Below are positions 12,048-20,903 of a stretch of 42,443 nucleotides of DNA, one piece after another; the stretch's first letter is position 1, and each line of letters begins with the position of its first letter. The stretch covers positions 31,855 to 74,297 of the forward strand of contig MGUL01000041.1 in the NCBI GenBank assembly GCA_001800005.1, read 5' to 3'. The stretch comes from Elusimicrobia bacterium RBG_16_66_12 (GTDB lineage Bacteria > Elusimicrobiota > Elusimicrobia > UBA1565 > UBA9628). The notes beneath the pieces are model-generated. The model did not search any database and was not told the DNA's origin. It was given only the letters and a program-made list of their open reading frames with translations. A program made the translations under genes and the position numbers.

Positions 12048-14654
12048 TCAGGTCCAGGGAGGTTCTTTGCCGACGATGCGCTTGATATAAGCCGTCTGCG
12101 GAAAGGACTCCGGGGCGTGGCCGGTCGCTAGGTAAAGCTCAGAGAAGCCGAGGACGTGTAGCTCTTCGGCGACGCCCATTCCGTGAACTCCGTCGCCGAG
12201 CTCGGAGTCAAGATAGATGGGGGTGTTCTTCGGCAGCTGTTCGGCGTTGGCGAGGAGTTCCTCGCGGCTCTTGAGCGATAAGAAGCGCAGGCCCCTGGAT
12301 TCCGCGGCGATCTCCCAGGCCATGTGCACCAAGAGGTCGTCGTCCAGAAGGACGGCATCCGGCGTCGCGGGCACAGCGATGGGAACGAAGCCCGCCAATC
12401 CCTTGGGGATCATTCGGGCCTTCAGCCGCAGGCATTCATCGAGGATGGCCTTCTCTTCAAACCGGCTCGTGACCAGGATCGTCTGGCTCCCCAGGCCGAA
12501 CTCGGCGATCAGCGCGAGCCCGGTCTGCGCGTGTCCCAGCAGTTCGTAGTCGGTCAAGTAGAGGGCTTTCCGGGAGGCGTCCGGGTTCCCGTTGCGCCAT
12601 GCGCGCAGCTCGTTCGGGCGCGAAAAATGAAGGACTACGACGCCCTTCTCTTCCAAGCGCAGCGCGTTAAAGCGGCTGCGCCATACCTGATGGATGCTCG
12701 CGTCGTCGTCTAGCACGGCCACGACGCCGCCGGGGAGGATATCCAGCTTGGCCACGAACCACGCCGGAGGCTTGGCGCGAGGCAGCCGCAAGGCCACCGT
12801 CGTCCCCCCTCCGGCCTCGGACGTGATCTCGAGCGACCCGCCCCATGCCACGGCGTTCGCCTTCGCTCGGTGGATGCCGAGCCCGTGCCCGCCGGGCTTC
12901 CCGTGCGTCACACCCCTTTCCCCCAGGCGCGCCAGCACCTCGGGAGGGACGCCTTTGCCGTCGTCTTGGATGAGGATCACCACTTCGCCGTCGCCGCCGC
13001 TCAAATCGATGGTGACGCGGCCCTTCTCGCCGACCGCCTCCACGGCGTTGTTGATGAGGTTCGAGAGGTCGCGCTTGAACTCGGCCGGGTTGATCCGCGC
13101 GAAGAGGCCGTAGGAGTCCGCTCCTTGGTTCGCCTCGATCTCGACGCCGATCATGGAGCGGAACTGGAGCCGCTTCTCGGTGAGCAAGGCGTCGATGTGG
13201 CTGGACAGCAGCTCGACAGCGGCCGAGTCGGCGGCCCCCGCGGCGATGGCTGCCTTGGCGCCCCGGTCTTTCTCGACGAGGCTGTTCGCGATGTCTCGGA
13301 TGCGGCCGATGGCGCTGCGCACCATGATCCTCCTCCCCTCCGCGAGCTGCGTGAGGTCCTTCTCCACGACAGCGAGCGCCGCCAAGGGCGACTTGATGTC
13401 GTGAGCGACCTGAGCGGCGAATGCCGAAATGGCGAGTTGGCGATCGAGGTCCTCCCTGAGAGTCTTGATGCGGGCGGCCAGACCCAGCGAGAGGAACAGC
13501 ATCTCCGCCGCCGAGCCCAGGTAGGGCCCGTTCGCCGTGACGAAGTTCTGCGGCAGCCACCCCAAGTCCCTTGCCGCGTGCGTGCCCGAGCCGATGAAGA
13601 AGCAGCTGAAGGCGACGAGATAGTAGACCGCGGGACGGGAGCCGAGCTGAGCGCAACGTGCCGAGACCGGGATGACGATTAGCGGCACGATCGAGATGAA
13701 GAGGCTCGTGAAGCGGTTGACGAAGAGGCCGTAGCTGAAGAGGCCGCCGATGATCAAAAAGAGCGCGCCCGCGATCACGACGTTGAGCCCCACGTCGAAC
13801 CGGGGCGTCAGGCGCTTGGTCTCGAGAAAGGACTTGGTGAAGAGCGCCAGGAACAGGTAGCTGATCCCGACGAGCACGGGCACGCTCACCTTGTTCCACG
13901 CCGGCCAATCGGGCCACAGGTATTGGTAGCTCATCCCGTTGAGCGACGTGAGCAGCAGGCAGAACGTCGCGGCGTAGACGACGTAGTAAAGGTAGTTGCG
14001 GTCTCGGAACGCGAACAGGAGGAAGAGGTTGTAAAGCGCCATCGCCAGGATGATGCCGACGTAGATCCCGACGGCTGTGCTCGTCCTGATGCTCTTTGTC
14101 ATCAGCGCCTCTTGAGTGGCGATGGACAAGGGAGCAAAGACCGTGCCGTTGCTCTCCACCATCAGATAGAGCTCCGTGCTGGCCCCCCCGGGAACGGCGA
14201 ACTCGAACAAGAAGTTGTGGTGGCCGATCGGGCGGCTGCTGAACGGCAGAAGGCGCCCCGTCTTGTAGCCGGCGACCTCTCGGCCTTCCAGATATTGGTA
14301 GAACTCGACCTTCTGGATCATCGGATAACCGAGTTCGAGCAGCCAATTGCCGGAGCGGGCGCCGCGGTTGGAGACAACGACCTTGAGCCAGCGGCGGGCG
14401 GGCGAATATCCGAAATTGAAGCGGCGGGTCGTGGACCAGGCATTGGCTTTTCCCTCAAGACGCCGGACCTGCTCGACGGAGAGCAGCCTCTCCTGGTCGA
14501 CGAGCATGCGGGCCTCGGTCACGGGATAGTAGGACCGGCCATCGGTCAACTCGAGCTGTGCCGGAGCCGGCGACGGGGTTGAGTGGGCGGTCGCGAGCGC
14601 GGGAGAGAGCGCGGCAAGCTGGACGACGAGGGCCAGTACGCCGCGGAGGCTCAT
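12048..14654 (-). CDS. Hybrid sensor histidine kinase: 7TMR-DISM extracellular domain, 7 TM helices, HisKA/HATPase core, two C-terminal receiver domains
   Basis: I trimmed ORF 12048..15248 to ATG 14654-14652 (MSLRGVLALVVQLAALSPALATA signal peptide). The upstream 198 codons are Arg-rich and overlap the methyltransferase gene. There are seven hydrophobic helices. The H-box is FAAQVAHDIKSPLAAL, the N-box LSNLINNAVEAV, G1 IQDDGKGVP and G2 GGHGLGIH. Two REC-like domains are present (VLDDD...YLTDYEL...LVTS...IPKG and LLDDD...IYLDSEL...LATG...VGKE). Confidence 0.9.
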   Translation of the reverse strand: MSLRGVLALVVQLAALSPALATAHSTPSPAPAQLELTDGRSYYPVTEARMLVDQERLLSVEQVRRLEGKANAWSTTRRFNFGYSPARRWLKVVVSNRGARSGNWLLELGYPMIQKVEFYQYLEGREVAGYKTGRLLPFSSRPIGHHNFLFEFAVPGGASTELYLMVESNGTVFAPLSIATQEALMTKSIRTSTAVGIYVGIILAMALYNLFLLFAFRDRNYLYYVVYAATFCLLLTSLNGMSYQYLWPDWPAWNKVSVPVLVGISYLFLALFTKSFLETKRLTPRFDVGLNVVIAGALFLIIGGLFSYGLFVNRFTSLFISIVPLIVIPVSARCAQLGSRPAVYYLVAFSCFFIGSGTHAARDLGWLPQNFVTANGPYLGSAAEMLFLSLGLAARIKTLREDLDRQLAISAFAAQVAHDIKSPLAALAVVEKDLTQLAEGRRIMVRSAIGRIRDIANSLVEKDRGAKAAIAAGAADSAAVELLSSHIDALLTEKRLQFRSMIGVEIEANQGADSYGLFARINPAEFKRDLSNLINNAVEAVGEKGRVTIDLSGGDGEVVILIQDDGKGVPPEVLARLGERGVTHGKPGGHGLGIHRAKANAVAWGGSLEITSEAGGGTTVALRLPRAKPPAWFVAKLDILPGGVVAVLDDDASIHQVWRSRFNALRLEEKGVVVLHFSRPNELRAWRNGNPDASRKALYLTDYELLGHAQTGLALIAEFGLGSQTILVTSRFEEKAILDECLRLKARMIPKGLAGFVPIAVPATPDAVLLDDDLLVHMAWEIAAESRGLRFLSLKSREELLANAEQLPKNTPIYLDSELGDGVHGMGVAEELHVLGFSELYLATGHAPESFPQTAYIKRIVGKEPPWT

Positions 14655-15394
14655 TTGCGCGCGATGAGGCCGACGCTCTCGCGGCCGTCGAGCTGGATGT
14701 CGGGCGGGAACTCGGGACGCGCGAAAGTCCCCAGCTTCTCGATCGTAAAGCCCGCCCCGCTGAAGACGCGCTTCAGCGTCGCCTCGTCGAGCAGGTGCAT
14801 CCGGCTCGGCAGGTTCCCGGCCCTTCCGGGATCGTGGGCGGCCACGTTTTCGACGATGCCGGGCCACAGGTCTCCCGCCTTGACTCGGGCCTCGTAGGTC
14901 GGGAAGAAGGCCTTGGCCGTTCCGATGAAGGGCGTCTCGCCCACGACGAAGACCTTCCCTCCGGGCGCGAGCCAGCTCATGACCTTTGCGGCCGCCCGCT
15001 CGATCGTGGGCCCGTCGAAGAAGTGCATGACGCGGCAGACGAGGACCGCGCCCAGGGTCCCGGGAGCGAACGTGATGCCGTCCGGGAAGCTCCCCGGCAT
15101 GAGCGTCAACCGCTCCCTGAGCCGCTCCAGCGCGCGGGCGCGCAGTATCTCCAGATGCCTCTCGTCGATGTCGTTGGCGATGACCTTCGCGCCGTTGCTC
15201 AGCGCGTTGAGGCTCGCCACGCCGTAGGCCGCGCCGACGTCCAGGCACGGCCCGGGCGCGCCCGGAGCGAAGTCGACGAAGGCCTGGGAGTAGGGGTCCA
15301 GGCCGGATGTCATGTAGCCCATATTGTTGAGCGTGCGGACGAAGCCGTTGGGCTCAGGCTTCGGCATTATATTCGGATTGTCGGATGGATTCAT
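14651..15394 (-). CDS. Class I SAM-dependent methyltransferase (small-molecule/protein type)
   Basis: Motif I is PCLDVGAAYGVASLNAL. It is followed by VIANDIDERH and APGGKVFVV. The gene is ATGA-coupled to the kinase gene (14651-14654). Confidence 0.85.
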   Translation of the reverse strand: MNPSDNPNIMPKPEPNGFVRTLNNMGYMTSGLDPYSQAFVDFAPGAPGPCLDVGAAYGVASLNALSNGAKVIANDIDERHLEILRARALERLRERLTLMPGSFPDGITFAPGTLGAVLVCRVMHFFDGPTIERAAAKVMSWLAPGGKVFVVGETPFIGTAKAFFPTYEARVKAGDLWPGIVENVAAHDPGRAGNLPSRMHLLDEATLKRVFSGAGFTIEKLGTFARPEFPPDIQLDGRESVGLIARK

Positions 15395-17836: not shown

Positions 17837-17900
17837 CTGCGCCACATGACCCCCTTGAGCCTCCGCCCCCGTTCTTTACCGCACGGCCTTTCGGCCGGGC

Positions 17901-17937
17901 AATAAAAAACGGGAAACGATTTTTAGTCGTTCCCCGT
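17901..17937 (-). terminator. Rho-independent terminator (minus strand)
   Basis: The minus-strand RNA reads acggggaacga-cuaaaaa-ucguuucccgu followed by uuuuuuauu. That is an 11-bp stem with one G-U (17937-17927 pairing with 17919-17909) and a U-tract encoded by 17908-17901. A GNRA-capped hairpin cggcc-gaaa-ggccg (17897-17884) follows. Confidence 0.7.
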
Positions 17938-18103
17938 GGCGGGACCCCGGTAAGGCGGGATCGTGGATACCCCGGGGCCAATCCCCCAGGCTACACAGGC
18001 TAATGGGACATTCTAAGTGTAGGGTGCCGGGCTTGAAGTCTCCAGGGCCGTTGGTCCCGCCCGGCGTAGGCCTTGGACACAGGACGAAAGGCCTAGGGAA
18101 CGA
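17927..18103 (-). promoter_or_regulatory. Candidate structured RNA element (riboswitch-like leader, 3' UTR, or small RNA) with a three-way junction
   Basis: Complementary segments were verified by hand. P1 pairs 18096-18103 (gggaacga) with 17927-17934 (tcgttccc). The P2 hairpin pairs 18067-18074 (taggcctt) with 18088-18095 (aaggccta). P3 pairs 17938-17946 (ggcgggacc) with 18053-18061 (ggtcccgcc). The 3' strand of P1 is also the 5' arm of the terminator. I recognise no Rfam family. Confidence 0.3.
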
Positions 18104-18140
18104 ATTCGTGGACCGTAGCCCCACGTGAGACCTGTTTAGC

Positions 18141-20903
18141 CTACGGTACGGGTGACAGCACGATTTTCAGACGCTGTCCGAACGCATCAGGCAGAAGCAC
18201 TCCGCCGGCGTCCCCACTGCCGTCATCTTCCCATTCTGGCCGGTGTCCTAGGATGAACTTAAACCAACGCTCCCGATCCCCGACCCGAAGATGCATTCGC
18301 TCATCAATGGTGCCCGGCAGATACCGACGGTAAATCTTCAAGCACGCGTTCGGGTCGCGTACAAGCTCACGCTCCACTTTACTGCCAAGACGGTCGACTC
18401 GTCCTACCCGCTGTTCTAGACGGGCAGGATTCCACGCCAAGTCGTAGTGCACGACTCGCGCGCATTCGCGGTGAAGATCTATCCCCTCCTGCATCACTTC
18501 AGAAGCAACCAAGACATAGGGCCGAAAAGGGGTATTGAAGCCGTAGCGATATCTACGACGATTGGCAATACTCTCGTCGCCGCTGGCGCGAGCCACCATA
18601 TTCTCAGTACGCAGGCCGCGGGCGAAGCTCCGGATCTCCTCCGCGGGAAGGGTGATAATCTCTTCCAAAAACCGCCGGACCATCCGTTGGACGCGCGGGC
18701 CTTGGGCGGCGGCGAGAAGCGCACGCTCGGCCCGGACACCTCCGCGGCCTCCAAGAGACAACGTGGCCGAGCCGAGAATTTCCGGCACAAATAAGGCCCT
18801 GCCGACCGCATCGAGCAATTCTTCGCGGAGAACCAGATCTTGGATTCCTTCAAGTTGCGCGCGATAAGGTTCCCAGACACTTCTGTGTTTAAGGACTCGA
18901 TCCAGCCACGCTACCAGCTGTTCCTTGGTGCAATAGTGGCTTCGAAGAATCGCGCGTTCATGGTCAGGGGTGAGAATTCGGACGATACGTCGCTTTAGGT
19001 CAACTGGATGGACAACCTCCTTTTTCCAAAACTGGTGGAGTGACGCAATGGTTGCCGAAGAGCCAGTTTGTACCTGACGCCCGAATACAATGCACTCGCA
19101 CAGCGACGCAAGGCTATCCCAGTCAGGTCCATGCGCTTTCCCCTTCAAGCCAACTCGGTAGCCGTTGCCGAATCGCGCGAGTTCTCGGATGACTTCTGGA
19201 TAAATGTCGTTCGCTGATGGACGAGCGCGAAGGTATGCGCAATAGTTCTCCTTGAATAACAGACGCAGCGTGTCGCGTTCGGTCGTAACTCTTTTGCGCA
19301 GGTTACGGAGGAGATGATCGACTTCAGCGCGCGATAGAGGCAGAAGCCCTGCATAAACCTGCTTTTCAAGCGCCAAGTTCAGCGTGGCCTGCAGCGCCTT
19401 GACCGACTCTAGGCGGGCAGTGAAGATCAGCACCTTTTCACCCTTGCGGAACTCATCGCTGACGCTCTGAGAGAGTGCCAAGAGTTTGGGATGTTGACTG
19501 CCATTTCGGCTGAGGAGCTTTCGCATGAGGCCGCGATAGAACGCTACCGAACCGGCGCCTCCTGCACGCCCACGCATCACGGCGCTTTCCCGAAAGGCCT
19601 CCCAAGAGCTCGTCAACGAGAGGCTTTGTACCGCCGAGAATGTCGGTTTCTGGCGTTGATACTCATACAGGAGTCTGTGCAAGACTGCGAAGGGGACCCG
19701 CTCCTTGCTACTGATTGGAATTGGAGTCTGGATTGTCTCCCGGTAGGCGCGCTCCTTAACATTCCGAACAACCCATTTACCTAGGATCGCCTGGAGATCC
19801 CGATGGCCCTGGCAAAGGGTCTCAAATGCGTGCTTGAAGGCAGGGTTGACATTGATTCCCCGAAGCTCCTTTTTGCTCACGACCGACTTATCCGTGGGGG
19901 TTAACGTTTGCCACGCATCTTCAAAGGTGCGGACGAGATCCTGATAGCGTTGGGCGCATGCAGTCACTGTCTCGGCTTCACGATCCATCGATCTGGCCGA
20001 ATGTTCAGTCGAATGTCGGAAGAGCCGCAACATGCTTTGAAGTTCATCAGGGCCCAACTGAAACGGCGTGGCCGTGAGGAAAAGCATGTCACGGAAACAT
20101 CGGTGGAAGACCGACTCCAAAGCTGCGTACTGCTTGCTGTCCGGGTTCTTTAGGTGGTGAGCTTCATCGACCACGACCAAACTAAATCGACGCAGCCGAG
20201 TGCGTATCAGCAACCAGCGGATATGGTCAGCTAGCGGTTTGAGCTTATAAGCCGCCACAGAATCGGGATCAAAAGGCCAGAGGTCCAATTCCTTCAGAGT
20301 TTTGCGGATGGTCTTCTTGAGACTCGGAACCCGCTCATCCAGCCAGGAGAGACGCTTTCGCGCCCATGGTGCGCCCCCCCTACCTCCCAGACGTCGCCAT
20401 AATATTATGCGCGCAGGGCGGTTAAGCCTCGCCGCTCGTGACACGAGGTGATAGACAAGCTCGAGAGTCCGCTTCCGTTCACCTGCCCGGCGTGAAGCAA
20501 GAAAGATGGAGGCTGGGAGGATCCAGACCCGGCTTTTAACCCGCGTCTGCAATAGCTTTTCTAGGGGCCAGTCATAGAGATCTTGGGTCAGAGACATCCG
20601 TCTTCCAACCCCAGGGCTAACGTTCTCCCGCCTAAACCGTTCCAAGTCGCGCGTCCACTTTTCAGCCAAGTCCGCTGAAGGAGTCAGCACGAGTACCCGA
20701 CTCCCAGGATAGCGCACCAGATAATCGGCGATTGCTCCTAGCGCCACATACGTCTTGCCCATCCCTACTTCATCGCTTAGAACCACTCCCGGTTGGACCC
20801 GCAGGCGATCCAGGACTCCCCGCATGGTGGCCGCTTGACGACGGGCGTCGGCAGTGGATACCCGGCGCTGCACTCCTTGGAAGTCGACGCGGACGCGGGC
20901 CAT
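18141..20903 (-). CDS. SNF2-family helicase (second copy, 920 aa)
   Basis: Motif I is VVLSDEVGMGKTYVALGAI. Motif II is LVVVDEAHHLKN. Motif III is MLFLTATPFQLGPDEL. Motifs V/VI are VLVASEVMQEGIDLH...VVHYDLAWNPARLEQRVGRVDRLGS. The ATG at 20903-20901 overlaps the PLD gene stop by 1 nt. Confidence 0.9.
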   Translation of the reverse strand: MARVRVDFQGVQRRVSTADARRQAATMRGVLDRLRVQPGVVLSDEVGMGKTYVALGAIADYLVRYPGSRVLVLTPSADLAEKWTRDLERFRRENVSPGVGRRMSLTQDLYDWPLEKLLQTRVKSRVWILPASIFLASRRAGERKRTLELVYHLVSRAARLNRPARIILWRRLGGRGGAPWARKRLSWLDERVPSLKKTIRKTLKELDLWPFDPDSVAAYKLKPLADHIRWLLIRTRLRRFSLVVVDEAHHLKNPDSKQYAALESVFHRCFRDMLFLTATPFQLGPDELQSMLRLFRHSTEHSARSMDREAETVTACAQRYQDLVRTFEDAWQTLTPTDKSVVSKKELRGINVNPAFKHAFETLCQGHRDLQAILGKWVVRNVKERAYRETIQTPIPISSKERVPFAVLHRLLYEYQRQKPTFSAVQSLSLTSSWEAFRESAVMRGRAGGAGSVAFYRGLMRKLLSRNGSQHPKLLALSQSVSDEFRKGEKVLIFTARLESVKALQATLNLALEKQVYAGLLPLSRAEVDHLLRNLRKRVTTERDTLRLLFKENYCAYLRARPSANDIYPEVIRELARFGNGYRVGLKGKAHGPDWDSLASLCECIVFGRQVQTGSSATIASLHQFWKKEVVHPVDLKRRIVRILTPDHERAILRSHYCTKEQLVAWLDRVLKHRSVWEPYRAQLEGIQDLVLREELLDAVGRALFVPEILGSATLSLGGRGGVRAERALLAAAQGPRVQRMVRRFLEEIITLPAEEIRSFARGLRTENMVARASGDESIANRRRYRYGFNTPFRPYVLVASEVMQEGIDLHRECARVVHYDLAWNPARLEQRVGRVDRLGSKVERELVRDPNACLKIYRRYLPGTIDERMHLRVGDRERWFKFILGHRPEWEDDGSGDAGGVLLPDAFGQRLKIVLSPVP

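Follow-up and report, generated by a model that had tools for sequence, protein, structure and literature searches.

A member of the rare 2′-dG-II riboswitch class very probably acts as an ON switch gating a sigma-54 regulator operon in Elusimicrobia bacterium RBG_16_66_12. Within the 42,443-nt stretch of this genome that we analyzed (the window), the minus-strand region 18001–17931 is, judging by its sequence, a riboswitch aptamer of this already described class, and the RNA family is thus not new. We infer the ligand, the transcription start, the regulated termination and the physiological cue of this switch. The initial annotation had placed a ~200-nt three-way junction here, upstream of the sigma-54 activator gene, and proposed competition between its closing helix and an intrinsic terminator. 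The core of that idea, a riboswitch with a closing helix competing with a terminator, is borne out, but the junction is not: the real element consists of a 71-nt aptamer plus a terminator, ~100 nt together, and the aptamer lies inside the ~106 nt that the previously drawn P3 would enclose (Table 1).

Table 1. Features of the riboswitch leader and the downstream operon (positions in the window)
Feature	Positions	Strand	Basis or remark
2′-dG-II aptamer (71 nt, purine-type three-way junction)	17931..18001	minus	RF03165 match and covariation
P1 CCUGUG / CACGGG	17999–17994 with 17938–17933	minus	RF03165 alignment
P2 CCUGGGG / CCCCGGG	17990–17984 with 17977–17971	minus	RF03165 alignment
L2 GAUUGG	17983–17978	minus	RF03165 alignment
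J2/3 GUAUCCACG	17970–17962	minus	RF03165 alignment
P3 AUCCCG / CGGGGU	17961–17956 with 17949–17944, plus G–C pair 17962/17943	minus	RF03165 alignment
L3 CCUUAC	17955–17950	minus	RF03165 alignment
J3/1 CCGC	17942–17939	minus	RF03165 alignment
Intrinsic terminator	17901..17937	minus	11-pair stem 17937–17909 including one G·U pair, then T6ATT
Terminator 5′ arm ACGGGGAACGA	17937–17927	minus	
Terminator loop	17926–17920	minus	
Terminator 3′ arm	17919–17909	minus	
Terminator tail TTTTTATT	17908–17901	minus	
GGACC (18057–18053), then box GGCCCTGG (18049–18042)	18042..18057	minus	conserved −35-region element of GACCCTSG-N19/20-TAyaCT
Predicted −10 element TACACT	18016..18021	minus	19–20 nt after box in 26 leaders
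Alternative −10 element TAGAAT	18015–18010	minus	
Inverted repeat TAGGCCTT-N13-AAGGCCTA	18067..18095	minus	previously drawn as P2; arms coincide with two TAGG(N)CC boxes
Receiver + AAA+ sigma-54 activator, 448 aa	16499..17845	minus	GTG start 17845, alternative ATG 17836; predicted first regulated gene
Short sigma-54-like protein, 367 aa	15399..16502	minus	only Sigma54_DBD domain detected; start overlaps activator stop
SAM-dependent methyltransferase, 247 aa	14651..15394	minus	
7TMR-DISM sensor histidine kinase	12048..14654	minus	probable start ATG 14654, overlapping methyltransferase stop (ATGA)

The aptamer and its class

A comparison of the whole window with Rfam 15 returned a single match above the gathering threshold, RF03165 (2dG-II), on the minus strand at the aptamer. 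The match is full-length (model positions 1–71) and, at 63.9 bits, exceeds the gathering score of 60 by only 4 bits; its E value over the whole window is 4e-14. In cmscan, RF03165 is also the best match within clan CL00123 for this region. This known, related family supports the riboswitch reading of the initial annotation, although the RNA is not a new one and the fold as drawn there went unmatched. The annotation had named a match to a known but unrelated family as a refutation; a riboswitch family does not count as one.

The residues that define the 2′-dG-II class, which we took from PMC6847200 and PMC12282948, are all found in the aptamer. The first-shell ‘UCC’ residues U22, C51 and C78 (C74 in xpt numbering) lie at 17993, 17965 and 17939 and are invariant in 31/31 copies of alignment A2, which comprises 31 aptamer copies from the same genome and its relatives. 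C50, C51 and A52 occupy 17966–17964, and the A48 of the class is present. The junction-proximal P1 pair is G 17994/C 17938 and is G–C, not A–U, in all 31 copies; likewise, the GG of L2 and the CC of L3 that make the loop–loop contact are invariant across the alignment. J3/1, which follows a seven-pair P3, is 4 nt long, a two-nucleotide insertion relative to the 2-nt form, and its letters deviate from the consensus. A guanine/adenine riboswitch (RF00167) was considered and rejected: that family needs U51, an A–U junction pair and a 2-nt J3/1, whereas position 51 here is C, the junction pair is G–C and J3/1 has 4 nt.

P1 consists of six pairs, its outer two positions being mismatched. The J3/1 context reads C-CCGC, as against GugaC in the Rfam consensus and GAGNC in the lineage consensus, with C and G as the equivalents of env1 U75 and A77; mutants of these two env1 residues have lowered affinity (PMC6847200). 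The conserved pocket residues point to 2′-deoxyguanosine as the ligand, and, given the unusual J3/1 of this copy, selectivity may be somewhat altered.

Covariation across the 31 copies agrees with these helices. Every cell of P2 and P3 is paired (100%), both sides change in 17 of the 21 helix pairs, and none of 500 shuffles reached the observed covariation measures. When the registers were slid, displacing the 3′ partners by 1–3 columns, pairing fell to 24–57%. Conservation of P1 is limited to its inner five pairs. Outside the helices, the nucleotide at J1/2 position 24 appears to change together with the first one of J3/1 (columns 11 and 61: A–U, G–A and, in the window, G–C), and G40/C59 appears to alternate with C40/G59 (columns 40 and 60), which extends P3. 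Such co-varying non-helical positions may reflect the tertiary tiers described for env1.

The family recurs in the lineage. Of 61 related genomes, 41 have RF03165 matches above the gathering threshold, up to 9 per genome; when the phylum Elusimicrobiota was sampled evenly, 24 of 251 genomes passed the cut-off, all of them within the taxonomic class of the window's organism. We found no paper in the searchable open literature that brings Elusimicrobia and the 2′-dG-II riboswitch together. Downstream of 30 copies in relatives, the genes mostly encode secreted proteins that lack Pfam matches, and the others encode family-5 binding proteins, HNH-like secreted proteins, ComEC-type metallo-beta-lactamase proteins, alpha/beta hydrolases and a small conserved protein. 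The same genome holds a second copy, on contig C37 (75.6 bits). The terminator and post-terminator leader of this copy (L003, 12091–12647, minus strand) are near-identical to those of the window, and it precedes the gene for a conserved ~135-aa protein with the motif YCTMYGVNIVDGNI..C.NIQRSL.FGP and no Pfam match; the open reading frame looked spurious, yet it is conserved in L007 and L013. A TPR protein is encoded upstream of the C37 copy, and ATP-grasp, family-5 binding-protein and kinase genes converge on the gene for the ~135-aa protein.

Terminator overlap and predicted promoter region

The terminator had been annotated with an 11-bp stem and a U7 tract; the stem stands, but the tail is T6ATT. 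Its 5′ arm overlaps the 3′ strand of P1 at 17937–17933, which covers five of the six P1 pairs. The initial annotation had rightly identified the strand GGGAACGA (ACGGGG) as common to the closing helix and the terminator, although its true partner is 17999–17994. In the minimum-energy fold of the leader (−45.5 kcal/mol), the terminator is formed and P2 and P3 are retained, whereas enforcing P1 yields −37.4 kcal/mol, a cost of ~8 kcal/mol, and truncates the terminator. Taken alone, before the 3′ arm of the terminator exists, the aptamer folds into the three-way junction at −33.9 kcal/mol. Among the 31 copies from the same genome and its relatives with enough downstream sequence, a terminator immediately follows the aptamer in 29, and in 28 of these its 5′ arm extends into the 3′ strand of P1.

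The pbuE (ydhL) adenine riboswitch of Bacillus subtilis is a transcriptional ON switch in which the 3′ strand of P1 lies in the terminator stem and ligand prevents termination. Because P1 in the window likewise shares nucleotides with the 5′ arm of the terminator, a ligand-stabilized P1 should prevent termination, making this an ON switch. As modeled, the layout follows the logic of a kinetic pbuE-type ON switch and is the rule for the class within this lineage. Between the terminator and the ribosome-binding region, the leader also holds a GAAA-loop hairpin (CGGCC GAAA GGCCG, 17884–17897, minus strand) followed by GGTAAAGAAC, a stretch kept in the sister leaders own_C37 and L013.

Upstream of the aptamer, 26 of 32 riboswitch leaders have a common architecture: TAGG(N)CC boxes at about −25 and −8 from GACCCTSG, a spacer of 19–20 nt, TAyaCT or TATCCT, a further 3–26 nt and then the aptamer. 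In the 26 instances, GGNCC occurs 47 times upstream of the box (box included), with peaks at −25 and −8, against 11.6 ± 3.4 in shuffles. The strict box-plus-hexamer pattern occurs 12 times in the genome of the window and 1–5 times in shuffles. It is seen at ~10 riboswitch-less places in this genome (C102, C39, C80, C117 and C128 among the sites), several of them just before start codons, and the architecture also lies upstream of aptamers in L004–L033. From these elements, transcription is predicted to start at about 18010–18002. The inverted repeat that had been drawn as a P2 hairpin probably acts at the DNA level, as a promoter or operator element, and not as an RNA helix.

A pattern scan of the same genome for canonical sigma-54 promoters gave 8 matches, all away from this locus. 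No terminator was called in the interval from the 18141 stop codon to the aptamer, so read-through transcripts from the upstream defence operon, with other 5′ pairings, are possible. The stretch had no match in metatranscriptomes from the source samples, and the runs that hold the stretch are all DNA metagenomes. Two soil ‘RNA-Seq’ runs contained only pieces at 90–99% identity, derived from relatives or from conserved AAA+ parts, with no usable ends or joints.

The downstream operon and its genomic surroundings

The operon encodes a receiver/AAA+ activator in which no HTH domain was detected, a short sigma-54 paralogue with no detected core-binding or region-I domains, a methyltransferase and a kinase. 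A 1,066-aa open reading frame for the kinase, beginning at 15248, was rejected as an over-extension into the methyltransferase gene; in the relative L034, the kinase frame begins at the methyltransferase stop. The passage of PMC8872408 that cites Weinberg 2017 names ‘signal receiver domain’ among the published gene associations of the 2′-dG-II class, which fits the receiver/AAA+ activator operon.

L034, an Elusimicrobiota MAG, is the closest relative, with an activator 85% identical to that of the window. From 18059 to the start codon the leaders are 95.3% identical, compared with 87.9% for the downstream gene, and the aptamer is identical at 69 of 71 positions. The G·U pair of the terminator becomes A–U in L034. 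Sequence similarity sets in weakly at about 18130 and becomes clear at about 18095, and the boundary between island and core DNA lies at about 18095–18140. Upstream of the leader, L034 encodes an RHS protein and a transposase fragment, not a defence island. Because the same leader and operon adjoin other neighbors there, we assign the riboswitch to the sigma-54 operon and regard its position next to the island as incidental, in agreement with the earlier placement of the element in core DNA.

In the window, the island at 18141–42343 matches PADLOC models for LmuA/LmuB (Lamassu), a DruE-like helicase, a DpdE/DrmD-like SNF2 helicase and a DrmMI-like methylase (DISARM/Druantia-type), as well as DUF429 (PDC-S44), DUF2779/Cas4-like, ZacB-like PLD and ZacC/PDC-M27C-like SNF2 proteins. 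A functional tie between riboswitch and island, in which nucleases would yield deoxynucleosides, was rejected as the primary reading on account of the neighbors in L034.

Across 18 activator loci from other Elusimicrobiota, the riboswitch lies directly upstream only in the 85%-identical orthologue, which suggests that the association is young or patchy. Most homologous activator cassettes lack a riboswitch directly upstream. The genome of the window itself has four paralogous activator/sigma-54-like pairs, and only the pair in the window has the riboswitch; the other three (C59:6601-9145, C125:6971-9515 and C182:6027-8597) are 52–67% identical. AT-rich palindromes such as TTCTCAAATGAGAA precede the start codons of these riboswitch-less paralogues, and C186 carries a more distant, canonical-looking activator/sigma-54-like pair.

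Among 30 homologous cassettes in relatives, a cross-reference made by hand places 12 within 10 kb of a 2′-dG-II riboswitch, against a chance expectation roughly estimated at ~0.6. One of the relatives, G015 (L081, G015:C9), has a second, independent fusion of riboswitch and activator, with an ATG 5 nt after the T tract and a sigma-70-like promoter (TTGAAA-17-TAAGAT) instead of the box architecture of the lineage. In G004 (L083, G004:C7) and G024 (L082, G024:C322), the cassette flanks riboswitch-headed operons. The G004 locus contains B12-radical-SAM, MFS and TPR genes and then a riboswitch with a family-5 binding-protein gene, in a run divergent from the cassette.

The cassette linkage, the direct fusions in two paralogue lineages and the common promoter architecture lead us to a tentative proposal that we hold at low confidence. 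At the top of a lineage-specific cascade, free deoxyguanosine, as a cue of DNA breakdown or cell lysis, would permit synthesis of the module of sigma-54 paralogue, HTH-less activator and 7TMR-DISM kinase; this module would then activate the radical-SAM, peptide, binding-protein and secreted-nuclease cassettes that carry the same riboswitch elsewhere. The TAGG(N)CC/GACCCTSG architecture before most copies might be a target of the sigma-54 module; it may be the signature of a dedicated sigma factor, a site for an activator or the promoter usual in the lineage.

Proposed mechanism, alternatives and relation to known riboswitches

We propose that transcription most likely starts at the riboswitch's own promoter a few nucleotides upstream of the aptamer (box 18049–18042, −10 element 18021–18016) and that the aptamer would fold first. 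Bound 2′-deoxyguanosine, or a very close guanine nucleoside, would lock P1 and so withhold ACGGG from the 5′ arm of the terminator (17937–17927). RNA polymerase would then pass the T tract into the operon of activator, sigma-54-like factor, methyltransferase and 7TMR-DISM kinase. If no ligand is bound, the terminator hairpin, as the more stable fold, would form and transcription would stop at about 17908–17901. Such a transcriptional ON switch would put the whole sigma-54-type module under the control of a DNA-breakdown metabolite.

The same fold and ON platform could respond to guanosine, to both nucleosides or to another guanine derivative as the natural effector. The J3/1 of the window copy, C-CCGC where 23 of 31 aligned copies have GAGNC, is consistent with this, as are the selectivities of published 2′-dG-II members, which range from 2.6-fold to 180-fold for 2′-dG over guanosine, and the altered affinities of J3/1 mutants (PMC6847200). 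We nevertheless consider an altered effector unlikely: every first-shell residue is invariant (U22, C51, C78, G21–C79, C50 and A48), and the covariation of J1/2 position 24 with the first J3/1 position suggests that this tier is kept in another form. It is very unlikely that the terminator serves mainly to end the 24-kb defence-island operon, with the aptamer a decaying or irrelevant relic. The island does abut the element, and no other terminator intervenes between its last stop codon and the aptamer; yet the same leader precedes the same activator in L034, where the island is missing, conservation of the leader exceeds that of the gene, all core aptamer residues are intact and the layout is the norm for the class in this lineage. 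The role of a 3′ UTR or insulator for the island operon, which had been offered as another reading, would be at most a side effect, and an independent small RNA used as the island insertion site found no support.

That the ~200-nt junction drawn earlier (P1 18103/17934, P2 18095/18074, P3 18061/17946) is itself the sensing structure seems to us close to negligible. Its complementary segments do exist: TCGTTCCC at 18103–18096 pairs with GGGAACGA at 17934–17927, TAGGCCTT at 18095–18088 with AAGGCCTA at 18074–18067, and GGCGGGACC at 18061–18053 with GGTCCCGCC at 17946–17938. Complementarities of 8–9 nt are also mildly enriched, with six perfect 8-mer inverted pairs against 1.0 ± 1.4 in dinucleotide shuffles (4 of 300 shuffles reach six); however, the fold of the whole 260-nt stretch is unremarkable (z = −1.87), and no Rfam family matches the drawn helices. 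The drawn helices are not conserved in L034, where the 5′ strand of P1 reads TAGCCGAG instead of TCGTTCCC, the arms of P2 are no longer complementary and P3 gains a mismatch, all without compensating changes. The 5′ helices would moreover lie upstream of the predicted promoter; the two arms of P2 fall on TAGG(N)CC DNA boxes, which recur across unrelated leaders with constant spacing from the promoter box; and the 3′ strand of the drawn P3 belongs to P3 and J3/1 of the true aptamer. We retain the 2′-dG-II ON switch as the preferred reading.

With the env1 2′-dG-II aptamer (PDB 6P2H; Weinberg et al. 2017; Matyjasik and Batey 2019, PMC6847200), the window copy shares the 71-nt three-way junction, the L2–L3 GG/CC contacts, the UCC pocket, the junction-adjacent G–C pair, the 4-nt J3/1 and the A at position 48, and with the class it also shares the reported ‘signal receiver domain’ gene association. 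It differs from the class in a J3/1 of CCGC rather than the consensus and in having only six P1 pairs, and also in that its host is identifiable (an Elusimicrobiota MAG) and its full operon is visible; the 12 members in the 2017 survey were all unassignable metagenome reads (PMC5473149). The scaffold family and platform logic resemble those of pbuE, but pbuE has a U74 adenine pocket and controls an efflux pump, whereas the riboswitch in the window has a C51/C78 nucleoside pocket and would control a regulator operon. The 2′-dG-I (Mesoplasma florum) and 2′-dG-III (Bacillus sp.) riboswitches are likewise purine-family junctions that respond to 2′-deoxyguanosine, and 2′-dG-III is also an ON switch (PMC9295807, PMC12282948). 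Unlike the window copy, both have a 2-nt J3/1 and other J2/3 and pocket residues, and 2′-dG-I has a shortened L3; the genes that they regulate encode ribonucleotide reductase and nucleoside hydrolase.

Biochemical and structural validation of the 2′-dG-II class relied on anonymous metagenome fragments, and the searchable open literature describes its hosts as unassignable and its downstream genes as a handful of fragments. The window copy lies in the assembled genome of an uncultured groundwater Elusimicrobiota bacterium, in which the promoter region can be read together with the ON-type terminator and the whole operon, and the earlier ‘signal receiver domain’ association appears there as a full module of sigma-54 activator, sigma-54-like factor and kinase. 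A riboswitch gating a sigma-type module, rather than an enzyme or transporter, would convert a metabolite signal into a second-tier regulon. Because the class occurs in multiple copies across the lineage, its biology is open to regulon analysis and experiment.
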